A program made the position numbers and the translations under genes. 64,000 bases of DNA, taken from a virus (taxonomy: Duplodnaviria > Caudoviricetes). The notes under the pieces were generated by a model, which made no database searches, was not told the DNA's origin, and worked only from the letters and a program-made list of their open reading frames with translations. The stretch spans positions 160,001-224,000 of the IMG/VR virus record IMGVR_UViG_3300031420_000495; one strand, written 5' to 3'. Shown piece by piece: positions 24,218-58,227 of this stretch (its first letter is position 1; each line of letters starts with the position of its first letter).

Positions 24218-25720
24218 TTAGCAGTCGATTTCTACCGCGTAACCCCACAGGTAGTCGATATGATCGGTGACCAGATCAGCATCGGCCAGGTCCAGCGTAC
24301 GGCCCTTGTATGGAATGTACTCGAGTTTCAACGTACGATCGCCTTCGAGGTCGGCGGATTTCACGACGATCTGCGGCACATAGTTGATACGTTCCATGCT
24401 GCGAGCCAGCGCATTGCGAATGTTGCGATAGCCGACTTCATCGTGGATTTCGCTCACGATCGCAGTGATGTGGCCGTCGTCATCGTCGCCTTCGTCAGGT
24501 TGACCTTGATCGTACGAGATGGTGAACAACCGCAGATCACGGATGACCTTCGGCGAAAGCCACTGCGCGATGAAGCTGTCGTCGCGGTATTCGAACGCGG
24601 CTTCTTTTACAGCATCTTGCCACTTGCGGCCCATCAGATGCGGGAACCATTCACGATCTTCGTCGGTCGGATTCTCGCACATGCGCTTGACGTCCATCAG
24701 GATCGCGAATCCGAGTGCGTACGGATTCGGTCCGCTGTACCAGCGATCACGATACACCGGCTGGTAGATCACCGCACTGTGGCTTTCCAGGAAGAACAGG
24801 AAAGCGTCCGGCGAGATGAAACCCTTTTCTTCCAGGCGGGTCATGATGTAGTAGTGGCAGAACGATGCGAAGCCTTCGTTCAGGTTCTTCGTCTGGCCCT
24901 GCGGGTAGAAGTACTGGTTGACCTTGTAGACGATGCGGATGATTTCGCGTTTCCACTGCGGCAAGTTCGGCGAATACTTCATGATGAAGTACAGCAGGTT
25001 TTCTTCTTCCTCGACCGAGTCCTCGGCATCATGCTCGCTCAGGTCGACCTCGCGGAACGACGTCTTCTTGAGGATGATGTCCAGCTCTTTTTGCTTCTGG
25101 TCTTCGTCGGCCAGCAACTTGATGAGGCGTGCTTCTTCGCCCATGCGCGGTTGGTGCTTGCGCTTGAACTTGTCGACACCGTGTGGTGCCAGCGCGTGCG
25201 CAGCATCGAGAACCATCTCGACTTCTTCCTCGCCGTAACGTTCTTCGCACTGGCGAATGTAGTCGCGTGCGAAGATCATGTAGTCGATGATCGAGCCGGC
25301 GTTGGTCCACTGCTTGAAGCATTCGTTGTTCTTGAACACTGCATTGTGACCGATTGCCGCGTGTGCCATCACCATGGTTTGCATGACCATGTTGTTGTCT
25401 TCCATCAGGTAGCTGATACACGGATTCGTGTTGATCACGATTTCGTATGCCAGACCCTGACGGCCGGACTGATACGCTCGGTGGGACTTCAAGAAGTCTT
25501 TACCGAACGACCAGTGATTGTAGTGGATCGGCAGACCCACGGACGAGTATGCGTCGAGCATTTGCTCAGCCGAAATGATTTCGATCGAGTTCGGATAGAT
25601 GTCGACACCCGGCTTCAGGTGCAACTCCTCCTCGGCGATGATTTCGATTTCTTTCCAAATCCTCTCGATGAGGTTTTGGTTCCAGTCCGTATGGCTGGTG
25701 ATGTACAATGGCTCGCTCAT
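24218..25720 (-). CDS. spoVR: SpoVR/YcgB family protein
   Basis: GLPIHYNHWSFGK, AYEIVINTNP, TKNLNEGFASFCH, NPYALG. Confidence 0.95.
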   Translation of the reverse strand: MSEPLYITSHTDWNQNLIERIWKEIEIIAEEELHLKPGVDIYPNSIEIISAEQMLDAYSSVGLPIHYNHWSFGKDFLKSHRAYQSGRQGLAYEIVINTNPCISYLMEDNNMVMQTMVMAHAAIGHNAVFKNNECFKQWTNAGSIIDYMIFARDYIRQCEERYGEEEVEMVLDAAHALAPHGVDKFKRKHQPRMGEEARLIKLLADEDQKQKELDIILKKTSFREVDLSEHDAEDSVEEEENLLYFIMKYSPNLPQWKREIIRIVYKVNQYFYPQGQTKNLNEGFASFCHYYIMTRLEEKGFISPDAFLFFLESHSAVIYQPVYRDRWYSGPNPYALGFAILMDVKRMCENPTDEDREWFPHLMGRKWQDAVKEAAFEYRDDSFIAQWLSPKVIRDLRLFTISYDQGQPDEGDDDDGHITAIVSEIHDEVGYRNIRNALARSMERINYVPQIVVKSADLEGDRTLKLEYIPYKGRTLDLADADLVTDHIDYLWGYAVEIDC

Positions 25721-27099
25721 TTCACTTTGCTCCCGCGTTTGCGATAAATCGTTTTGAATGCGTCGAACACTGCATGCTCGTCGGCGATCTTAATCATCGC
25801 CAGCTTCTTGTTGTTCGATGCGATGCTTTGCATCACAGACCACAACGTTTGGCTGCTGCCGAATCCGGCGCCGAATGATTGACCGACTTGCACGTAAACT
25901 GCGTGACGGAGCTTGGACAGCAAACCCGACTCGACGATTTCTTTGACGATGGCAGGATTGTCAGTGTCCCAGTTGTCGCCGTCGCCAGCATACGACACAT
26001 AGATGTTCGTCTGACTTGCGTCATAACGTTCTTTGATGATCGTGTGCAGCAGTGCCCAGGCTGGAGATACAATTGTACCACCAGACTTGCGCGTTGTGAA
26101 GAATTCTTCTTCAGTCAGCTCTTCGGCTTCGTCGGTGTGCGCGATGAAGATCAGGTCAGTTTGCGGGTACTTCTTGACGATGAACGCGTATTGCAGGGTG
26201 AAGAACTTGCGGGCCATACGTTTCTTTTCTTCGTCCATCGAACCCGAGATGTCCATCAGCATGCACAGCACCGCGTCGGATGCTTTGACTTGAACCTTCT
26301 CGGTTTTGCGGTAACGCAGGTCGACTTCTTCGTACAGGCCGATGCCGTCGATCTTTTTCTTCAGTTCAGCGATACGAGTCGAAACAGTTTGCACGCGCTT
26401 CGCCCACAGATCAGTGCTGCCCATCGCGCTTGCATCGAAGTCGTCGGCCATCAGGTATTTCAGCTCGTCTTCGAGTTCCATCAGTTCATCGCGCGAATCT
26501 TTCGTCAGCGCGAGGCGACGTGCCAGCGAATGCTTGAACGACTTGACAACGGCGAGCTGGCCTGGGTTACCAACCTTCTGGAAACCGGCACGCTTCATGA
26601 CGTGCTCAGGCAAATCCTTCTCGTGCGTTTCTTTCAGATCCGGCAGTTCGCAGTCTTCGAAGAAGACGTCGTAGAATTCCGAACGGCTGATGTTGATGAT
26701 GAAATCATCTTCACCGCTTTCGCCGGGTCCATTGCCGCGTCCGCCCTTACCGCTGCCCGAGCCAGTCGACATTGGGAACTCGTCGCCCTTCAACCAAACG
26801 TCGTTACCGATGAGCACGATTTCGTGTTCACCGGAATTGTGATCGTAGTGGAATGTGGGTTCGTTCAGAGCTTGACGCGCGACTTTGACGGGATTGGTTT
26901 GCGAGTTGGCGCCATGGCTCGATCCAGCTTTGTGGACGCCACCAGCATCGATGTCTTCCGGCTTCGCGTTGCGAATCGAATCGCGAATACGCTTCAGCAG
27001 TTTCTGTCGATTGTTTGACGATTTGCCGCGACCAGTTTTGCGGCGGTCCACGAAAATGAAGTTCGTGGTAACTGGTGCTTTTTGGCTTTCATCACTCAT
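25717..27099 (-). CDS. yeaH: YeaH/YhbH (DUF444, vWA) protein
   Basis: KSSNNRQKLL, LMDISGSMDE, SGGTIVS, YAGDGDNW. Confidence 0.95.
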   Translation of the reverse strand: MSDESQKAPVTTNFIFVDRRKTGRGKSSNNRQKLLKRIRDSIRNAKPEDIDAGGVHKAGSSHGANSQTNPVKVARQALNEPTFHYDHNSGEHEIVLIGNDVWLKGDEFPMSTGSGSGKGGRGNGPGESGEDDFIINISRSEFYDVFFEDCELPDLKETHEKDLPEHVMKRAGFQKVGNPGQLAVVKSFKHSLARRLALTKDSRDELMELEDELKYLMADDFDASAMGSTDLWAKRVQTVSTRIAELKKKIDGIGLYEEVDLRYRKTEKVQVKASDAVLCMLMDISGSMDEEKKRMARKFFTLQYAFIVKKYPQTDLIFIAHTDEAEELTEEEFFTTRKSGGTIVSPAWALLHTIIKERYDASQTNIYVSYAGDGDNWDTDNPAIVKEIVESGLLSKLRHAVYVQVGQSFGAGFGSSQTLWSVMQSIASNNKKLAMIKIADEHAVFDAFKTIYRKRGSKVK

Positions 27100-27316
27100 T
27101 GCATTTCTCCTTTTTCCGGAACAGCCGTTCAGCTGCAACAGAAGCTGTTGTAGGGAAATTGAATGGCGAATCATCAGACCATTCAATTTCCCGACTTTCA
27201 TGATCTACGACCGTAACAGACTGAGAAAGGCTGAATTTGATTTCATCAACCAAATCAGCCTCACTCAAACCGTCATGGTCCACCACGATCATAGTGATGC
27301 GGTGGACCCTGGCCAT
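27092..27316 (-). CDS. hypothetical protein inside prkA operon
   Basis: ORF filling the gap with overlaps. Confidence 0.55.
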   Translation of the reverse strand: MARVHRITMIVVDHDGLSEADLVDEIKFSLSQSVTVVDHESREIEWSDDSPFNFPTTASVAAERLFRKKEKCNE

Positions 27317-29280
27317 TACGCGCTCTTACGGTTGGCGGTGAACCAGCTCACCAGGATTTGCACCTGATGTTCGGTGTAGCCCTTGTCGATCATGCGCTGC
27401 ACGAAACCTTGATGTTTCTCTTCGGTTTCCTTGTCTTGCTTCGGACCGAACGCGATGACCGGCAGAATCTGTTCCGTAGCCGAGAACATGCGTTTCTCGA
27501 TCACGGTCTTGATCTTTTCGTACTGGTCCCAGCGCGGGCTGTTGCCTTCGTTCTTCGCTTTGTAGCGCAGCACGTAGTGCACGATTTCGTTACGGAAGTC
27601 CTTCGCGTTGGTGATCGCGGCGGCCTTCTCGATTTCTTCCAGCTTGCTGTTGAGCGCTTCGCGGTTCATCAGCGTGTGGGTTTCCGGATCGCGGCACTGC
27701 TCGTCGTTGATCCATGCTTCAGCGAACAGCACGTAGCGTTCGAACATGTTCTGGCCGAAGGAGCTGTACGACTCGAGGTAAGCCGTGCGCAGTTCTTTTT
27801 CCAGGAACTCGAAGTATTTCGGTTGCAGGAAGGACTTGATGAAGTCCATGTATTTCTGCTCGCGTTCTTCCGGCAGACCTTCCTTGCGCACCGATTCCTC
27901 GATGACGTACATCAGGTCGATCGGGTTGGCCTGGAATTCTTCCGGACGCAGGTCGAAGACCGACGACAGAATCTTGAAGGCGAAGCGAGTCGACATACCG
28001 GTCATGCCTTCGTCGATACCAGCGTTGTCGCGGTATTCTTCGTACGGCTTCGCATTCGGCATGCGGTCCTTCACGTTCTCGCCGTTGTACACGGCCAGCT
28101 TCGCGTACAGCGTGCTGTTTTCCGGTTCCTTCAGGCGGGTCAGGATCATGAATTGCGAGAGCATCTTCAGGGTGCCCGGTGCGATTGGTGCATCGCGCAG
28201 GTTCGAGCCCTTCAGCATCTTCTCGTAAATCTTGATTTCTTCGTCGACACGCAGGCAGTACGGCACATCAACGATGAACACGCGGTCCAGGAATGCTTCG
28301 TTGGTCTTGTTGTTGCGGAACGCGAACCATTCGCTTTCGTTCGAGTGCGCCACGATCACGCCCATGTACGGCATTGCCGGAATTGCTTCCGTACCGTTGT
28401 AGTTGTGTTCTTGCGTCGCCATCAGCAGCGGGTTCAGGGTCTTGATGTTCGCCTTGAACATTTCGGCGAAGTCCATCATACCTTGGTTGGTACGGTTCAG
28501 GCCGCCGCTGTACGAGTACGCGTACGGGTGATTCTGCGGATACTGTTCCAGCTTGCGCAGGTCAGTCTTGCCGATCAGCACCGAGACGTCTTGGTTGTTC
28601 TCGTCGCCCGGTTCGACTTTCATGACGCCGATCTGGCGATCTTTGTTCGGATACAGCTTGACCACGCTGAAGCGCGTGATGTCGCCTTCGAATTCCTGCA
28701 GCTTCTGCAGTGCCCAACCCGACAGCACGGTCTGGTTCAGGTAGTTGGCAGGGATGCCTGCGTCGGCGATGACTTCGGCGTGGGTCTCGTCGTTCTTGTC
28801 GAACAGAGCCAGCGGCGATTCGAAGACCGGCGAGGTTGCCAATTCCGGATTCTTCTCGTTCGCATCATGCAGAACGTAGATCGGGAACTTTTCCATCAGT
28901 GCCTTCAGGCGTTCGACGATGGACGACTTACCGCCACCGACCGGGCCTTTCAGGTACAGGATTTGTTTGCTTTCTTCCAGGCCGGCCGAAGCGTGGCGGA
29001 AGTAAGCGGCCAGACGCTCGATTGCGTCTTCGGCGCCGTAGAAGTCCTTGAAGGCTTCGTACACGCGGATTTTCTTGTTGCTGTGGATACGCGACAGACG
29101 GGAGTCTTCGCTCGTATCGACGACCTTTGGTTGGCCGATTGCAGCAACCATGCGTTCCGCTGCGGTCGCGTAGGCCATCTTGTCTTTCTTGCACAGATCG
29201 AGATACTGATCCAGCGTCATGACTTCTGGTTTGGCGAACTTCGCTGCGTAAGACGAAGAGAGTGCGGAAAGATTGCTCAT
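27316..29280 (-). CDS. prkA: PrkA/YeaG AAA+ serine kinase
   Basis: KQILYLKGPVGGGKSS, NQDVSVLIGK, GMTGMSTRF; TAAATA upstream. Confidence 0.95.
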   Translation of the reverse strand: MSNLSALSSSYAAKFAKPEVMTLDQYLDLCKKDKMAYATAAERMVAAIGQPKVVDTSEDSRLSRIHSNKKIRVYEAFKDFYGAEDAIERLAAYFRHASAGLEESKQILYLKGPVGGGKSSIVERLKALMEKFPIYVLHDANEKNPELATSPVFESPLALFDKNDETHAEVIADAGIPANYLNQTVLSGWALQKLQEFEGDITRFSVVKLYPNKDRQIGVMKVEPGDENNQDVSVLIGKTDLRKLEQYPQNHPYAYSYSGGLNRTNQGMMDFAEMFKANIKTLNPLLMATQEHNYNGTEAIPAMPYMGVIVAHSNESEWFAFRNNKTNEAFLDRVFIVDVPYCLRVDEEIKIYEKMLKGSNLRDAPIAPGTLKMLSQFMILTRLKEPENSTLYAKLAVYNGENVKDRMPNAKPYEEYRDNAGIDEGMTGMSTRFAFKILSSVFDLRPEEFQANPIDLMYVIEESVRKEGLPEEREQKYMDFIKSFLQPKYFEFLEKELRTAYLESYSSFGQNMFERYVLFAEAWINDEQCRDPETHTLMNREALNSKLEEIEKAAAITNAKDFRNEIVHYVLRYKAKNEGNSPRWDQYEKIKTVIEKRMFSATEQILPVIAFGPKQDKETEEKHQGFVQRMIDKGYTEHQVQILVSWFTANRKSA

Positions 29281-30458: not shown

Positions 30459-31136
30459 TCAAGCGCTCGCTGGTTGTTCAGATTCATCATCGTCCTTGTT
30501 CATCATGTGCCTGATGAGCGTCAACTGATTGTTGATTTCGAGCTTCGCATTTTCGAAGATCGCTTCTTGGTCCGGAAAGCGGCGGCGAGCTTCTTTGATG
30601 CGCGGCATGAATTCTTCTTCCGTTTCTTTGACGTAGCGCTCGAGGCGCGCTGGCTTGAATACGCCGAACATCGTCGAGACGTTGTCGCAACGGTCTTTCG
30701 TTTTCACCGGTGCAGTGTCTTCGTCTTCGAAGATGGCATCGAGGCTGTACTCGGGATTTTTCTGTCCCAGTATTTCTTTCGACAGCTTCTTCAGCTTCAT
30801 GGCGATCTTCGCACCCCACTTCTGCTCGACTTCTTCGAGAGAAACCATTTTGCCGGTTTCTTTGTTCGGGTCTTCGACCGCGTCATGCAGGAACGTGAGG
30901 ATGTACACGATCACTGGATTGCGGATGTGTCGATGCATGGTCCGCAGTCGCATGAAGATGCCGAGCTGGTGAATGAACTCAGGGTCACCGCCATTGCGTT
31001 TCCCGTTGTGATGCTCGAGCCCGTACTCGAAGGCAGCTAGCACCTTGAAGTATTCTGGGTCTTGTTCAGCCATGCCGAGCAACCAGTAGCGGGTCGCAAT
31101 CACAAGCTTTTCGAACTTGTTAAGTTTGGTTTCCAT
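30459..31136 (-). CDS. HD-domain small alarmone ((p)ppGpp) hydrolase
   Basis: H.GKRNGGDPEFIH, FLHDAVED, VKTKDRCDN. Confidence 0.8.
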   Translation of the reverse strand: METKLNKFEKLVIATRYWLLGMAEQDPEYFKVLAAFEYGLEHHNGKRNGGDPEFIHQLGIFMRLRTMHRHIRNPVIVYILTFLHDAVEDPNKETGKMVSLEEVEQKWGAKIAMKLKKLSKEILGQKNPEYSLDAIFEDEDTAPVKTKDRCDNVSTMFGVFKPARLERYVKETEEEFMPRIKEARRRFPDQEAIFENAKLEINNQLTLIRHMMNKDDDESEQPASA

Positions 31137-31213
31137 GAGTTCCATTGTACACCTTTGTGGAGTGTTCTACAATTTATTTTACATTGATGATGTAAAAAGT
31201 TGTCTAGTCAACT

Positions 31214-32215
31214 TCACGTGATGATGAAGTCGTCGATGATAACGTCGAGATAATCTCGCGCTGCTTGCCTTGCGTCTTCACGAGTCCGCCACGAAGTCGG
31301 ATCGAGTTTGGCCAGCGACGGAATGGCATACTCGAACGGCGCTTCGGAATCCGGGTTGTGATGGATTTCCACTTCGTACCCGCGGTACGAGAAGGTTCGT
31401 ACACCATCAAACTTCTGGTTATACTTCTTCTCCTTGAAGAGGAAACTTACCGGGTCCTTCAGTGTCGCGAGGTTGATGTCGTGCGACACGATTTCCGAAC
31501 GTTGCACCGGACCTTTCGGACGATGCTTCTCGGGAATCTTCGCCAACTCAGCTTCGGACAGCTCACGGTCGACCAGCAGACGACGTGCAAACGTTCCGCG
31601 CTTGAAGAAGTACGGGTACGCCTCGAAGTTGACGCCTTTGTCCAGCATCATTTGACGAAGCTGCAGACCGTTCTTTCCGTTCAGCTGCTTCTGCGAATAC
31701 AGAGCTTGCGCGCCCATCGACACCGCGTTCTTCGTCGCGTCTTGTTGACGCCACAACAGAACGTGATATGCTTCTTGCAAGTTCGGCACGACGTATGCAC
31801 GTGCATCGAAGCACGGCAACAGATGAGCCTTCTGTGGCAGGTAGCCGGCGAGGTTCTTGTTGAACACGGCCGTGGCATACGATGCCGTCAGCGTCTCGAT
31901 CTTCTGGAAGCGGCCGTCGAAAACGAGTTCCGACTTGCTGTCTGGTTCGCTGGTGAAGATCAGCGTGATTTCGTCCGACTGCGTGTAGCCGATGTCGCAA
32001 TGGAAACGCTCGACCAACGCCGACATCGTAAGGATCATCAGCTCCGACAGGTCCACGTCGTATGGGCGTTTCAGACCTTTCGTGAACGTGTGGAAGTTAT
32101 TGCCATCCAAACGCACGATGAGAGGTTGGCCTTTGAAAGCCCTGCGTGAAGTTGAAGGCGCTTCGTACGCCTTCATGCGATCGCCGATTTGTGTCTTGTC
32201 AGTGCGGTCCGTCAT
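31214..32215 (-). CDS. thg1: tRNA(His) guanylyltransferase Thg1-like protein
   Basis: RMKAYE, VRLDGNNFHTFT, YTQSDEITL, CFDAR, WRQQDATKN. Confidence 0.92.
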   Translation of the reverse strand: MTDRTDKTQIGDRMKAYEAPSTSRRAFKGQPLIVRLDGNNFHTFTKGLKRPYDVDLSELMILTMSALVERFHCDIGYTQSDEITLIFTSEPDSKSELVFDGRFQKIETLTASYATAVFNKNLAGYLPQKAHLLPCFDARAYVVPNLQEAYHVLLWRQQDATKNAVSMGAQALYSQKQLNGKNGLQLRQMMLDKGVNFEAYPYFFKRGTFARRLLVDRELSEAELAKIPEKHRPKGPVQRSEIVSHDINLATLKDPVSFLFKEKKYNQKFDGVRTFSYRGYEVEIHHNPDSEAPFEYAIPSLAKLDPTSWRTREDARQAARDYLDVIIDDFIIT

Positions 32216-33435: not shown

Positions 33436-35058
33436 TTAGAAGTTCGCGATGATCTGCGGTGCGGCCGAGTCGAAACCGGCGATGTCCAGCATACCGCCGT
33501 CTTTCGGATCAGCGATCGTGAACTGCGTGACCGACGTACCGATCACAACCGACTTCGCATTCTTGTTCACGTTCGCGCGGTACTTTGCGAGAGCCTGAAC
33601 AGGCGACTGACGACCCGAGTTGGTTTCGTTGTCGGTGATGATGACGAACTTGTCGACTTTGTACTTGTGCGCCGCAGCGTACTCGTAGGTCTTCGCGCAG
33701 TCGGTGCTGCCGCCGTTCCAGTTCGCTTTTTCCATCACGTTCAGCACTGCGTCGAGACGCATGCTTGGCGAGATTTTCAGTTCCACGAGGTCTTGCTTGA
33801 AACCAACCACGTGGCTGTTCGGCTGATTGCGAATCACGCCCATTGCCATACATGCCGCAACTTCCGCTGCGTTCAGGTTTGGCGAGCCGTTCACGTTCGA
33901 ACCCCACATCGAGCCGGAGATGTCGACACCTACGAGGTAGTTGTCGTCAGTCTTTTCGGCTGCGGCGAATGCAGCGTAGAACGCGTCATCCAGTGCGGTA
34001 ATGATGCGCTGATCCGGAGTCCAGACCAACGAACCACGCTCACCATGGCCGGCCTTGTACTGCTTCATTGCCTGCAGGATCGTGATTGGGTGCACGCGAC
34101 CACGACGAATTGCTTCGACGTCGGTCAGCTTTGCGACAGCCAGCTTCGAGCCTTCGGACAGCGGGCCGAATACACCGTGTGCGGACAGCGAACCCAGTTT
34201 ACGGATCAGGGCTGTCATACCCATGTTGCGGACCAGAGCCAGCAACACGTCTTTGTCTTTCAGGAACTGGGTCGGCACCATTTCCCAGGTCAGCAGGTCG
34301 GAACCTTCGATCAGACGCAGAACGTCTTTCTTGTCGGTTGCGCGCTTCAGGTACTCGAAGTCAACGAGGACTTGCGGTACTTCTGCGCCTTCTGGCAGCT
34401 CACCTTTTACGGAGTAGCGGAACAGGTTGGACTGCTGGTCGGACGATGGCTTCACGTGCGCGAGACGCAGAACGTCGCGGTGTGCCCAGCCGTTACGCTG
34501 TTGGTACTTCAGCATCTGCACTGCCAGCTTGTCGATCGTCTTGCCGGTGTACCATGCGGCAACACCACGCTTTGCTGCAGCGTTCCACTTGCCCAGCGCG
34601 TCCAACATCGACACGAACAGGAACAGGTGGGTACCGGTACGGCAGACCTTTGGCAGGGCTTCGTACGCAGCAGCGACGGTTTCGGCATTGCCGAAGACAG
34701 CAGCCAGCGCGAGCGCCACGACTGCTGGATCGTTCTTCGGAGCGCGGCCGGCGAGCGAGTATTCGACGATGCGGTTGACCACGCGCAGACCGTCTTCTTT
34801 GATGCAACGCTTGATCACATCGAAGGACATCTTCGTGGTTTCTTTCGCGCCGACGTAGTAGCCAGCGGATTCCGAACCGATCATGAGGAATCGGTCAAAC
34901 ACGCCGAAATGATCGAGCGTGAACGTGAAGGCACCGCTGTTGTTCCGCTTCATCTCTGCTTCACGGCCTGGGACCGGAGCTTGCAGTGGTGGAGTGGAAG
35001 TCTTCGCCATGTTGGTCGAAGATGCGTTTGCGAGGTCGGTGTAGATGGATGACGACAT
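33436..35058 (-). CDS. rsr: Ro60/Rsr TROVE-domain RNA-binding protein
   Basis: NNSGAFTF, RFLMIGSE.GYYV, KYQQRNGWAHRDVLRLAH, vWA DISGSM, GGSTDC, ITDNET. Confidence 0.93.
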   Translation of the reverse strand: MSSSIYTDLANASSTNMAKTSTPPLQAPVPGREAEMKRNNSGAFTFTLDHFGVFDRFLMIGSESAGYYVGAKETTKMSFDVIKRCIKEDGLRVVNRIVEYSLAGRAPKNDPAVVALALAAVFGNAETVAAAYEALPKVCRTGTHLFLFVSMLDALGKWNAAAKRGVAAWYTGKTIDKLAVQMLKYQQRNGWAHRDVLRLAHVKPSSDQQSNLFRYSVKGELPEGAEVPQVLVDFEYLKRATDKKDVLRLIEGSDLLTWEMVPTQFLKDKDVLLALVRNMGMTALIRKLGSLSAHGVFGPLSEGSKLAVAKLTDVEAIRRGRVHPITILQAMKQYKAGHGERGSLVWTPDQRIITALDDAFYAAFAAAEKTDDNYLVGVDISGSMWGSNVNGSPNLNAAEVAACMAMGVIRNQPNSHVVGFKQDLVELKISPSMRLDAVLNVMEKANWNGGSTDCAKTYEYAAAHKYKVDKFVIITDNETNSGRQSPVQALAKYRANVNKNAKSVVIGTSVTQFTIADPKDGGMLDIAGFDSAAPQIIANF

Positions 35059-35115
35059 GTGTATTTCCTTCACGATAATTTATACGGCTGCACGCGCAGC
35101 AAAGAGCAACAACTC

Positions 35116-55162: not shown

Positions 55163-55237
55163 TGGGGTGACTAGAGGGAATCGAACCCTCGTGAGGGGAT
55201 TCACAGTCCCCGACTTTACCACTAAGCTATAGCCACC
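55163..55237 (-). tRNA. tRNA-His(GUG) with encoded G-1
   Basis: GGGGA-CUGUGAA-UCCCC; C73; G at -1 (55237). Confidence 0.92.
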
Positions 55238-55245
55238 ATTGAAAC

Positions 55246-55437
55246 TTATTCGAAGCACATCACCGAAACCGTGCCTTCGTTCGGGCCGATGCCGACGAGA
55301 GTTGCTTCGCCATCTTCCGTCAGAACAGCAACCATGTGCGGCCCGTTCATCATGGCTTCTTCGGCATTGTAGATGACGATTTCATCGCCTTCCGTAATCA
55401 TGCCTTCGTAAGCCTGTTTGATAAATTCAAAATTCAT
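55246..55437 (-). CDS. hypothetical protein
   Basis: ORF. Confidence 0.55.
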   Translation of the reverse strand: MNFEFIKQAYEGMITEGDEIVIYNAEEAMMNGPHMVAVLTEDGEATLVGIGPNEGTVSVMCFE

Positions 55438-55446
55438 TATACCACC

Positions 55447-55740
55447 TTATTTCTTCGCGATCAGACGTTTGGCGTTGTTCAGGAAACCTTGTTCACCGCT
55501 CAGGTCGGTTTCGATGCGACCGTTGAACTGGATCACTGCAACCGGATTTTTCACACCAGCGCGGACGATGCCACCGAACCAGTCACGACCACCAAGGCCG
55601 TTTTCGTCGATGCAATCGCGAACCAGCTTCGATGCTTCTTCCAGCGAAGCGACGTCAACCCATTGCGCATTGCGCGGAGTCATCGTCATTTCGCCTTCGA
55701 AGAAAGCGATCAGGACTTGCAGGTTGGTAGCGTTCGACAT
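55447..55740 (-). CDS. hypothetical protein
   Basis: ORF after promoter. Confidence 0.65.
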   Translation of the reverse strand: MSNATNLQVLIAFFEGEMTMTPRNAQWVDVASLEEASKLVRDCIDENGLGGRDWFGGIVRAGVKNPVAVIQFNGRIETDLSGEQGFLNNAKRLIAKK

Positions 55741-55771
55741 TTTGTTTCTCCGTGTGTTTGGTCAGTGAAGT

Positions 55772-55810
55772 CATTATACCCAACACACAGAGAAATGCAC
55801 AGACTTATTT
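55772..55810 (-). promoter_or_regulatory. promoter AAATAA..CTGTGCA-N17-TATAATG
   Basis: Motif read directly. Confidence 0.7.
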
Positions 55811-56053
55811 TCCGTCTGCGCGACCGCCTTCACGGGCGAAGCGACCTTGCGGTGCTTGCTCCAGCGATGCAGCCGGATTCACCGGCTTGTAGTTGCCGGT
55901 TGCACGACGAGCAGCGCGGGCAGTACCACGCGGGGTTTTGGTTTTGGCGGTAGCGGTCATAATCATTTCCTTTTCAGGCTAAAGTTAGAACAAGCAAAGT
56001 GTCGTTCAGTGAGGCTATTATAGCAAACAGCCTCAGCTGTGTAACCCATTATT

Positions 56054-56935
56054 TCAGTGATTGCGCTCTTGGCCTTTGCGGCGGATCACCCACATATCGT
56101 CTGCGAGACGGTACGGAGAAGTGAACCAGTCTTGAGTCATTTTGAAGTAACCGTTGTTACCCCATTGTTTACCCCAAGAGTTACGAATCCAGACGTACGG
56201 TTCTGCCACGCGATCTTCGTAACCAACAGCAACAACTGCGTGACCACCGTTCATGCGGTCACGTGGGCCTGGCATGCGAAGGAAACCATTGAAACGCGGG
56301 CTGAGGAAAATCTCAGGGCAAGAGAAACCAAACGTGACTGGATAGCCAAGTGCCAGTGCTGCTTTCAGTTCGTTCAGATTGTTAACGCGCATGTACTCGA
56401 AACCCCACATACGATCGACCAGTGCTTTACCTTCAGCGAAGGCTTGAGCGGATGGTTTGACCGAGAAGCGGCTTTCGATGTACGGCCAGGTTTCTTCGTA
56501 CGCTGCTCCATAGGCCGCGAGACCCTTGATGACACTACGAATTGTCGCACCAGTATCTTGTGTCAAGTCTCTGTTGCCGTCCATTACACGCGCGTTGTAA
56601 TACGCGAACAGACGAGAGAACGGACGACGGGTGCCGATCGAAATTTCGAGTGCAGAAGTAGAAGAGTTACCCGTGCAGGAACCAATCTGACCTTGATTTT
56701 CGATTTTGTTGCGAAGACCAACGATGTTAACGAACTTCGGCAGAGCAGCAGTGTTGACTGCTCCGTTGAGCGCGCTGAACATGACGTCGCGATGGTCCGG
56801 CATATCCGGACGCCATTGATATTTGAGAATCCGATCCATGCCTTCTGGCACGACCATCGGCGTTTGTGGGGACGGATTGTCTGTTGGTGGGAGTTGCGAG
56901 TCGATCGCTTCTTCCAAGGTGTTGTTGTCACTCAT
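56054..56935 (-). CDS. papain-like (C1A) cysteine peptidase
   Basis: NQGQIGSCTG, GGHAVVAVGY, IRNSWG..WGNNGYF. Confidence 0.93.
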   Translation of the reverse strand: MSDNNTLEEAIDSQLPPTDNPSPQTPMVVPEGMDRILKYQWRPDMPDHRDVMFSALNGAVNTAALPKFVNIVGLRNKIENQGQIGSCTGNSSTSALEISIGTRRPFSRLFAYYNARVMDGNRDLTQDTGATIRSVIKGLAAYGAAYEETWPYIESRFSVKPSAQAFAEGKALVDRMWGFEYMRVNNLNELKAALALGYPVTFGFSCPEIFLSPRFNGFLRMPGPRDRMNGGHAVVAVGYEDRVAEPYVWIRNSWGKQWGNNGYFKMTQDWFTSPYRLADDMWVIRRKGQERNH

Positions 56936-56974
56936 GATATTCTCCTAAAGAGTTGTTGGTGTTACAACATCTAT

Positions 56975-57214
56975 TTAGGCAGAGCGTGCTACTTTGATGC
57001 TCCCAGACTTGGCCATGATGATACGTATGTCACCAACTTTCATGCCGGCGAAGTATTGTTTGATTTGAATTGGCGTGAGGTAATACATGCCGTTAGCTTT
57101 TGAGAACACATCGAAACCCAGCGTTTCGCCTTTTGTTCCACCATTGCTTCCGTCACGTAAAACTTCGAACTGCCAGTCACGCATGCTTTCGTCAGCAATT
57201 TCGGTGAGTAGCAT
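56975..57214 (-). CDS. hypothetical, MLLTEIADE N-terminus
   Basis: TAAATA upstream. Confidence 0.65.
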   Translation of the reverse strand: MLLTEIADESMRDWQFEVLRDGSNGGTKGETLGFDVFSKANGMYYLTPIQIKQYFAGMKVGDIRIIMAKSGSIKVARSA

Positions 57215-57254
57215 AATTTTCCCAGAATGTTTTTCTTATTTACAGGGAAGTGTT

Positions 57255-57327
57255 TGGCAAGGGTGGAGAGAATCGAACTCTCCGCAGCGCGGTTCAAAGC
57301 CGCGTGCAATCACCAGATCGCACCCCA
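57255..57327 (-). tRNA. tRNA-Gln(UUG), short D-arm
   Basis: CGCGG-CUUUGAA-CCGCG, CCA. Confidence 0.8.
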
Positions 57328-57333
57328 ACTGAT

Positions 57334-57403
57334 TGGCAAGTCAACACGGAATCGAACCGTGCCTAACGGGTTTGGAGCCCGTCGTCATCCCAGATGCTGA
57401 CCC
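57334..57403 (-). tRNA. tRNA-Trp(CCA), 70 nt, truncated D-arm
   Basis: ACGGG-CUCCAAA-CCCGU, CCA. Confidence 0.75.
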
Positions 57404-57408
57404 ATTGT

Positions 57409-57585
57409 TTATTCGTCGACGAGTTCGAACTCGCCTGCTTCTACCTTGTCCAGCATCAGGTTGATCTGTCGCGCGATGTCCTCAGCGCTGACATTCGGAT
57501 TGCTGCCCAACGTAAAGCCGATATTCTTTACTTCCAGCGAACCAGGTCCGAAAAGACGCTTGGTGGCTTTTTCCATTTCAGTCAT
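57409..57585 (-). CDS. hypothetical protein in tRNA array
   Basis: ORF. Confidence 0.55.
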   Translation of the reverse strand: MTEMEKATKRLFGPGSLEVKNIGFTLGSNPNVSAEDIARQINLMLDKVEAGEFELVDE

Positions 57586-57608
57586 ACAAAGTCCTTTCAA
57601 AGTTATAC

Positions 57609-57682
57609 TGGTGGAGAGGGATGTTTTCGAGACACCGACGCACCTGTCCCCCAGGCCGCTCTACCAACTGAGCTACCTCTCC
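57609..57682 (-). pseudogene. tRNA-like gene with aberrant G-rich anticodon loop
   Basis: Canonical D-arm and CCA but loop GGGG(G)A and T-loop CUCGAAA. Confidence 0.65.
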
Positions 57683-57687
57683 ATGTT

Positions 57688-57761
57688 TGGTGCCCAAGTG
57701 CGGAATCGGACCGCATTCTCTTCCGTACCAAGGAAGTGTACTGCCATTGTACTACGAGGGC
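57688..57761 (-). tRNA. tRNA-Thr(GGU)
   Basis: CUUCC-UUGGUAC-GGAAG. Confidence 0.85.
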
Positions 57762-57767
57762 GATGTT

Positions 57768-57895
57768 TGGTGCCGACGGCTGGATTCGAACCAAGCCCTA
57801 GTCTTTTCGTAGAAGATAACCGTTCACTGACGGTCACATTGCTGCGACAAAACTTGTAAACGACGTTTCTGTGCTGTCCACTACACTACGTCGGC
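57768..57895 (-). ncRNA. 128-nt tRNA-like RNA with large insertion in the anticodon arm
   Basis: GCCGACG/CGUCGGC acceptor, D-arm, UUCGAAU, CCA; ~55 extra nt. Confidence 0.7.
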
Positions 57896-57901
57896 ATTGT
57901 T

Positions 57902-57976
57902 TGGTCGTGACGGGCGGAATCGAACCGCCTTGATACACCTTATGAGGGTGGCGCATTGCCTTAATGCTACGTCACG
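57902..57976 (-). tRNA. tRNA-Met/Ile2(CAU)
   Basis: CUCAUAA loop. Confidence 0.85.
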
Positions 57977-57988
57977 GTAAAAGTACTT

Positions 57989-58062
57989 TGGGGTGACCGA
58001 CGGGAATCGAACCCGCGCTATCTCCGTCACAAGGAGAGTTGCTACCATTACAACACGGTCAC
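57989..58062 (-). tRNA. tRNA-His(GUG) without encoded G-1
   Basis: UCUCC-UUGUGAC-GGAGA; C73; U at -1. Confidence 0.88.
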
Positions 58063-58074
58063 ACTAAAATACTC

Positions 58075-58227
58075 TCAGTCTTTCTTCTGTTCAATCTTCT
58101 CGATTGCTTCAACGAGTTGATCGTAATACTTTGTCATCTTGGCATGTTGCACTGAATCAGAAAATTTTCCATAATTGCAGCACTCCATTTGAAATCGGTC
58201 CAGCAAGCGTTTGATGTTTTGGTCCAT
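58075..58227 (-). CDS. small hypothetical protein
   Basis: MDQNIKRLLDRF... Confidence 0.5.
   Translation of the reverse strand: MDQNIKRLLDRFQMECCNYGKFSDSVQHAKMTKYYDQLVEAIEKIEQKKD

Follow-up and report, generated by a model that had tools for sequence, protein, structure and literature searches.

A clamped family of phage histidine tRNAs without G-1, and its relation to a Thg1-like protein encoded by a jumbo phage

Introduction

Nearly all histidine tRNAs (tRNA-His) are marked by an extra guanosine at position -1 (G-1). Two routes to it are known, one in which G-1 is encoded and kept by RNase P and one in which it is added by Thg1. Here, we analyse a stretch of 64,000 nucleotides (“the window”; bases 160001-224000 of the 257-kb IMG/VR jumbo-phage record IMGVR_UViG_3300031420_000495), which carries two tRNA-His genes, one with and one without G-1, as well as the gene of a Thg1-like protein (TLP). 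The gene without G-1 belongs to a conserved family of phage tRNA-His genes in which the 5' leader is complementary to the 3' trailer, a feature called the clamp in the following. To our knowledge, the physiological substrates of bacterial-type TLPs are still unknown, and a literature search found no paper on them or on clamped, G-1-less phage tRNA-His.

In E. coli, the RNase P cut between positions -2 and -1 is directed by U-2, G-1 and the G-1:C73 pair, and the loss of G-1 makes charging by histidyl-tRNA synthetase (HisRS) of the E. coli type more than 100-fold worse (PMC5499578). HisRS recognises mainly the 5'-phosphate of position -1, and it also takes A-1 and C-1 variants of tRNA-His as substrates. 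The eukaryotic Thg1 system resembles the phage locus in that a G-1-less tRNA-His gene and a Thg1-family enzyme are found in one genome. It differs in its A73 tRNA-His, in the untemplated addition of G-1 and in the HINNLYN segment of the enzyme, whereas the phage has C73, no HINNLYN and a second tRNA-His gene that does encode G-1. A tRNA-His gene without G-1 is also known from the bacterial world, namely from some alphaproteobacteria of the Caulobacter type, where it goes together with A73 and a co-evolved HisRS. The G-1-less phage gene (copy B) falls outside this system, as it has C73 and a search of the 257-kb record with PF13393 found no HisRS.

The closest relatives of the phage enzyme are bacterial and archaeal TLPs such as BtTLP of Bacillus thuringiensis and MaTLP, with which it has in common the PF04446 domain, the catalytic RxDG and SDE motifs and WRQQDAxKN. 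BtTLP adds G-1 efficiently only opposite C73 (kcat/KM of 5500 versus 108 M-1 s-1 for A73), and its preference for 5'-truncated tRNAs, whatever their identity, is 5-160-fold (PMC3061083). MaTLP binds tRNA without reading the anticodon when it acts in repair; in a second mode it binds the His anticodon and adds G-1 to tRNA-His lacking it (PMC4820378). From this biochemistry it follows that a C73 tRNA-His without G-1 is a credible TLP substrate, but not the one preferred by the family. A survey of jumbo phages describes Thg1 as a sporadic RNA-repair enzyme which restores 5' ends, and phage tRNA repair kits comprise Pnkp and Rnl1 of T4 as well as jumbo-phage genes (PMC7824862). The present genome likewise has an Rnl1-type ligase, a CCA-adding enzyme, a Thg1-like protein and Ro60; here the genes are scattered.

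Two histidine tRNA genes of different kinds

In the window, ARAGORN identified 28 tRNA genes, every one of them on the minus strand, and two of these are tRNA-His(GTG) genes. The complete 257-kb record contains 29 tRNAs, among them the same two His genes, and one Thg1 gene. When scored with Rfam RF00005 (cut-off 29 bits), copy A reached 63.8 bits and copy B 58.6 bits. An earlier note made from the sequence had described two tRNA-His genes, one with and one without G-1 and both with C73, and this description is confirmed by the minus-strand sequence.

Copy A, a tRNA-His(GUG) at 55163-55237 (minus strand, G-1 included; 55163-55236 in ARAGORN), is canonical for bacteria. It combines the GUG anticodon with U-2 at 55238 and an encoded G-1 at 55237 that pairs with C73 at 55166, followed by CCA at 55163-55165, and its acceptor stem is GTGGCTA/TAGTCAC. 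Copy B, a tRNA-His(GUG) at 57989-58062 (minus strand), lies in the tRNA array and belongs to the family with the D-arm TGTTGTAATGGTAGCAAC. GUG, C73 (57992) and an encoded CCA are present and the acceptor stem is GTGACCG/CGGTCAC, but G-1 is not encoded: position -1 is a U (58063, minus strand) that stands unpaired opposite C73 and is preceded by G-2.

The RNase P determinants U-2, G-1 and C73 are all found in copy A, as in nearly all canonical viral copies. In copy B this arrangement is reversed, with G-2, U-1 and a mismatch with C73. The predicted cut is therefore at +1, which would yield a G-1-less product that a TLP could extend.

A conserved helix clamps the histidine tRNA

The earlier note was silent on the sequences that surround copy B. 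In the minimum free energy (MFE) fold, its leader and trailer form 12 contiguous pairs from -4:76 to -15:87 (58066-58077 with 57978-57989), to which the pair G-2:C74 is added. The leader strand of the clamp thus comprises positions -2 to -15 (58064-58077, minus strand), and the trailer strand comprises positions 74-87 including C74, C75 and A76 (57978-57991, minus strand); both are delimited by the MFE fold and by covariation in the family.

This family was gathered by a search of IMG/VR with the D-arm TGTTGTAATGGTAGCAAC, which copy B has in common with its homologue in another phage, G084. The search yielded 61 IMG/VR stretches and 47 distinct sequences. We define a clamped phage tRNA-His by three features, namely a pyrimidine at -1 mismatched with position 73, the pair G-2:C74, and at least 10 bp of pairing between leader and trailer. 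All three are found in copy B (U-1 opposite C73, G-2:C74 and a helix with 12 contiguous pairs). It deviates from its relatives at -3, where it has an A, and thus an A/C75 mismatch, in place of the G found in 41 of 44 members. Of the 47 sequences, 42 have T at -1, three have C and two have G; the two with G lack the helix, so that G-1 is absent from all 45 clamped genes. A C at position 73 is found in 46 of the 47, and C74 and C75 are invariant, while position 76 covaries with -4 and is a U in 32 sequences and an A in 14.

A gapless alignment of 44 sequences served for the analysis of covariation. The helix consists of 13 pairs with 96% of cells paired, and compensatory double changes occur at 8 of the 13. 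When the register was slid, only 36-48% of cells were paired, and the observed values were reached by none of 500 shuffles. At least 9 of 12 flanking pairs were present in 26 of 28 distinct tRNA-His genes as opposed to roughly 10 of 800 other tRNAs from the same loci. Judged by these patterns of conservation, the clamp is a conserved and almost tRNA-His-specific feature. In related arrays, fully paired flanks were also seen around a small number of tRNAs for Thr, Leu, Pro and Gln.

The family is not confined to uncultivated viruses. In GenBank phages no near match to the B-type tRNA-His sequence was found at E 1e-8, but a relaxed threshold revealed homologues in Aeromonas phages. Cultured T4-like phages of Aeromonas have the clamped architecture in genes annotated as tRNA-His, in the form of ten leader bases, a T, the tRNA, C73 and then the complement of the leader.

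Clamp (13 bp), acceptor stem (7 bp) and T stem (5 bp) add up to about 25 bp, which is about two turns of helix, and a 1x1 mismatch lies at the centre. The RNase III of E. coli uses two helical turns and accepts coaxially stacked helices, and its cutting is restricted by internal loops (PMC1540722). On a model substrate, a GC pair adjoining the scissile bond lowered cleavage by this enzyme 7-14-fold. G:C pairs (G-2:C74, G-3:C75 and G1:C72) flank the candidate RNase III cut. The RNase III stems of rRNA operons and T7 sites of the R1.1 type are comparable to the clamp in that a leader/trailer helix brackets a stable RNA and that a quasi-continuous helix of about two turns contains an internal mismatch. 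The clamp differs from them as it brackets a single tRNA and has G:C pairs beside the mismatch that are unfavourable for E. coli RNase III.

When compared by eye, which is a weak test, the strands of the clamp do not resemble the terminal stems of the Y-like RNAs (60493-60575; others beside rsr), and a role of the clamp as a docking stem for Ro60 was rejected as no motif common to it and these RNAs was seen. The array also contains, between copy B and tRNA-Lys, an open reading frame (ORF) of 50 codons (58075-58227, minus strand). The TGA stop of this ORF falls on the outer end of the clamp leader, and translation of the ORF could in principle open the helix.

The Thg1-like protein

That the gene at 31214-32215 (minus strand, 333 aa) belongs to the Thg1 family, as the earlier note had it, is beyond question. 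It matches PF04446 with 106 bits (E 1.8e-30, residues 12-144; cut-off 29.2), and its best match among solved structures is BtTLP (PDB 4kgk, E 3e-38). When the protein is aligned with 12 homologues from phages, S80-D81-E82 and WRQQDATKN are invariant and D37 of the RxDG motif is nearly so; the catalytic acidic residues (RxDG Asp, SDE) align with the same residues of BtTLP. Compared with a Thg1 chain of the eukaryotic type (5xox), the phage protein has a ten-residue gap at the HINNLYN segment. The enzyme is of the bacterial/archaeal TLP type, which by its motifs predicts template-dependent activity. By analogy with BtTLP and MaTLP, 3'-5' addition of G-1 opposite C73 and the repair of 5' truncations would be expected, and the earlier statement that Thg1-like proteins can repair 5'-truncated tRNAs agrees with the preference of BtTLP (PMC3061083). 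Unlike these two proteins, the enzyme is encoded by a phage and has an extra C-terminal region of about 70 aa (residues ~265-333; 31214-31420, minus strand), which is unmatched in Pfam, in the solved TLPs and in the aligned parts of the phage homologues.

Clamped genes and Thg1 rarely occur together

According to the earlier note, the activity of copy B would depend on the phage enzyme. The distribution of the clamped family speaks against this dependence. All 50 IMG/VR records with the clamped family that were tested were negative for PF04446, including G133 (338 kb, 97% complete) and G143 (383 kb, 100% complete) as well as G137 (83% complete), G147 (75%) and G135 (65%). In these five phages the clamped gene is the only tRNA-His found. 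Likewise, PF04446 was not found in the complete genomes of the Aeromonas phages AS4 and Aes508, where the clamped gene is the only match to a His sequence pattern. As the family is kept in many phages without Thg1, its maturation and use would appear to be independent of this enzyme. Among 14 control genomes, Thg1 was found only in Methanosarcina. The best 80 bacterial TLP loci come mostly from Myxococcota, Planctomycetota and Bacillales, and Aeromonas is absent among these 80, the Aeromonas genomes themselves not having been searched directly.

Thg1-like genes are common in phages, with 162 GenBank records and more than 588 IMG/VR matches. To score the presence of tRNA-His, 50 large Thg1-positive records were matched to the His sequence pattern, and 34 of them had no match, including 12 of the 19 that are at least 90% complete. 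G079, the closest complete relative by Thg1 (61% identity, 98% complete), has 33 tRNAs but none for His. Where Thg1-positive records do have tRNA-His, nine encode G-1 in all copies, eight have only genes without G at -1, which are of several unrelated types, and four (this phage, G084, G094 and G116) have both kinds. These four phages, which combine a TLP with both kinds of tRNA-His, are natural test cases. One of them, G084, is the one other phage found with both Thg1 and a homologue of copy B. In this homologue the discriminator is U73, which would therefore template A and not G, and both phages with Thg1 and a clamped copy (this one and G084) also keep a canonical copy with G-1. A further sample of viral tRNA-His genes was drawn by sequence pattern, with no selection for Thg1. 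A non-G nucleotide at -1 occurred in 18 of 48 Thg1-negative and 2 of 4 Thg1-positive records of this sample, and a statistical link between Thg1 and tRNA-His without G-1 was not found in it.

Several side observations concern the same records. In the IMG/VR sample of viral loci (L038-L117), roughly a third of tRNA-His genes have no G at -1, and the canonical copies almost always have T-2 together with G-1. In a group of Thg1-positive phages of ~155-165 kb, the tRNA-His genes (L032:1860-1933, L033:1608-1681, L034:1469-1542 and L078:1047-1118) have an acceptor end that is unusual for tRNA-His, with C1:G72 and A73; the nucleotide at -1 is C or A. In the Thg1-positive phage G116 (L239:1488-2151), three tRNA-His genes lie together, one with T-1 and one of 89 nt with a long variable arm.

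G001 (349 kb) is the closest relative by Thg1 that has tRNA-His. Its single His-like gene has C-1, U73, no CCA and a flank helix of 7 bp. This region of G001 (L026:3867-4152, minus strand) contains three consecutive tRNA-like genes (Asn, Asn, His), each inside a leader/trailer helix of 7-8 bp; the trio has no encoded CCA, whereas the neighbouring tRNAs have CCA and short spacers. G001 and G079 are the two jumbo phages closest by Thg1, and both have tRNAs with a CTA anticodon (amber-reading; ‘Pyl’ in ARAGORN; L028:18112-18270 in G001, L408 in G079), which hints at stop-codon reassignment or suppression.

A model for the two tRNAs and its rivals

The reading that we favour, with a probability of roughly 0.55, combines three parts: the clamped family is independent of Thg1, the TLP serves mostly in the general repair of tRNA 5' ends, and its use of copy B is opportunistic. 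Copy A would be an ordinary tRNA-His of the bacterial type, released by the host RNase P with its encoded G-1. Copy B would be made as a clamped precursor of the conserved family, in which the 5' leader is paired with the 3' trailer through G-2:C74, usually G-3:C75 and about ten more pairs, leaving a lone unpaired pyrimidine at -1 opposite C73. Because of the U-1/C73 mismatch, RNase P would be expected to cut copy B at -1/+1, whereupon addition of G-1 opposite C73 by the TLP would be possible as an extra, without any dedicated dependency. The claim in the earlier note that the array copy is the substrate of Thg1 can accordingly be kept in part. Given a cut at +1, both the templated addition opposite C73 and the His-anticodon mode make copy B plausible as one TLP substrate, at about even odds, while a dedicated substrate is unsupported. 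In this phage lineage the TLP would most likely repair damaged tRNA 5' ends in general, as part of an end-repair kit with the Rnl1-type ligase, the CCA-adding enzyme and Ro60 with its Y RNAs.

Several points weigh against this reading. The absence of Thg1 is firm only in the few complete records, as most IMG/VR records are incomplete, and Thg1 does coexist with G-1-less tRNA-His in this phage, G084, G094 and G116, where there may be a lineage-specific partnership between the two. The repair function, most likely as it is, is argued from the biochemistry of the family and from genes that are scattered over the genome and form no operon. The cut site of copy B is derived from the rules for E. 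coli RNase P. Finally, the more than 100-fold penalty for HisRS makes it hard to account for the working of the clamped family in phages without Thg1.

In the model of the earlier note, a dedicated dependence on Thg1, RNase P cuts at -1/+1, the TLP adds G-1 and copy B is inactive otherwise, which would give the phage control over its own tRNA-His. The presence of U-1 and C73 in the same genome as a TLP, the efficiency of BtTLP in templated G-1 addition to C73-tRNA-His and the His-anticodon mode of TLPs are all in line with this model, as is the combination of Thg1 with G-1-less tRNA-His in G084, G094, G116, G001, G022 and a group resembling Bacillus phages. Yet the clamped family is maintained in phages without Thg1, complete genomes included, and the phages that do have Thg1 mostly lack tRNA-His or encode G-1. 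In addition, the copy B homologue of G084 has U73, templating A-1, the canonical copy is kept by both phages with Thg1 and a clamped gene, and non-G(-1) genes are not enriched among the Thg1-positive records of the pattern-drawn sample. Taken as a whole, the pattern makes such a dependence improbable.

Alternatively, the clamp itself could supply the extra 5' nucleotide, with a nuclease leaving pU-1 and the TLP playing no part. An RNase III cut or a shifted RNase P cut would produce pU-1 and C75-OH with a 3' overhang of 2 nt, A76 would be added by the CCA-adding enzyme, and HisRS would accept the product through the 5'-phosphate at -1. In favour of this idea, the clamp is specific to tRNA-His, the sole tRNA that needs an extra 5' nucleotide, and with its length of about two turns and its 1x1 mismatch at the centre the stacked helix agrees with what RNase III needs in general (PMC1540722). 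As position 76 is mostly U and covaries with -4, A76 must be added afterwards in these genes, and a 3' end at the invariant C75 followed by addition of A76 fits the majority of genes with CCU; an enzyme of the CCA-adding type is encoded in the genome. HisRS also accepts A-1 and C-1 variants, the base of G-1 mainly positioning the 5'-phosphate. On the other side of the balance are the G:C pairs directly beside the proposed cut, which in E. coli lower RNase III cleavage 7-14-fold, and the combination of U-1 and G-2, the reverse of what directs RNase P of E. coli to cut at -2/-1. A retained G-1 would moreover suit HisRS best, but it occurs in none of the 45 clamped genes. We therefore consider this route unlikely.

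In a third rival reading, the clamped genes encode RNAs in the shape of a tRNA that lack G-1 by design, are poorly charged and act outside translation, for instance as a decoy for a defence that targets tRNAs, as a sink or sensor for HisRS or for signalling by uncharged tRNA, or as a stable reservoir of pro-tRNA. A leader with U-2 and G-1 would be trivial to evolve, yet G at -1 is avoided by the clamped genes, and C74 and C75 are sequestered by the clamp. A canonical copy is present besides the clamped one in this phage and in G084, and deviant tRNAs of other kinds and a Y-like RNA are found in the array. In those Thg1-less phages that were examined, however, the clamped gene is the sole tRNA-His and lies in ordinary tRNA arrays, the cloverleaf and the GUG anticodon are preserved with compensatory changes as in a working tRNA, and the Ro60 docking motif is not seen in the clamp. 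A purely non-translational role thus seems very unlikely.

The clamped family points to a maturation route or a function beyond the two known pathways. In the broadest form of this idea, the clamp would be either a new, Thg1-independent solution to tRNA-His identity, with a pyrimidine left as the extra nucleotide by a host double-strand nuclease or by a shifted RNase P cut, or the hallmark of a special-role tRNA that is deliberately G-1-less. We regard this as speculative; if true, the TLP in the few phages that also have one, such as this phage, would act as a switch by turning this form into one with G-1. Of greater interest than the link to Thg1 is the family itself, conserved, clamped and without G-1, whose maturation can be tested in cultured phages of Aeromonas; in AS4 and Aes508, which lack Thg1, it provides the only tRNA-His.

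Genomic context and the rest of the tRNA array

Next to the TLP gene lies a gene with a weak match to the HD domain (30459-31145, minus strand), and two genes upstream of the TLP gene is a gene for Ro60/Rsr (TROVE and vWA domains; 33436-35073, minus strand), which provides a context of RNA quality control. Thg1 and Ro60 are not adjacent in G001. The gene order Thg1, ~230-aa ORF, DHFR, bactofilin-like protein and PrkA is kept in this relative, where the ~230-aa ORFs are matched by position alone. The nucleotidyltransferase of the CCA-adding type and the T4 Rnl1-type RNA ligase are encoded elsewhere in the genome. Searches for relatives of the array, by megablast against GenBank phages and by a search of IMG/VR via the neighbouring papain-like protease, gave nothing useful. 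The window also contains a complete trio of PrkA, DUF444 and SpoVR genes (stress kinase of the YeaG-YeaH-YcgB type; 24218-29280, minus strand). The order downstream of the TLP up to the PrkA-type gene recurs in G001, whose locus ends within that gene.

Other deviant tRNAs and the Y-like RNA (60493-60575) are part of the same array, and 11 of its 28 tRNAs fall under the Rfam gathering score. Acceptor stems pair normally in the other tRNAs except for U1/U72 in two tRNA-Gln genes and scattered internal mismatches (tRNA-Thr at 57688-57761 and tRNA-Gln at 60580-60653, both on the minus strand). The tRNA-Trp called by ARAGORN at 57334-57411 (minus strand) is mis-registered, its true acceptor stem GGGTCAG/TTGACTT lying seven bases inward, with a reduced D arm. 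A role of the TLP as a 5' editor of mismatched acceptor stems was rejected, as the apparent mismatches of tRNA-Trp result from this mis-registration. Between 57255 and 60815 (minus strand), nearly all array tRNAs have an encoded CCA, followed by an AAACANN-like spacer of 6-8 nt before the next tRNA.

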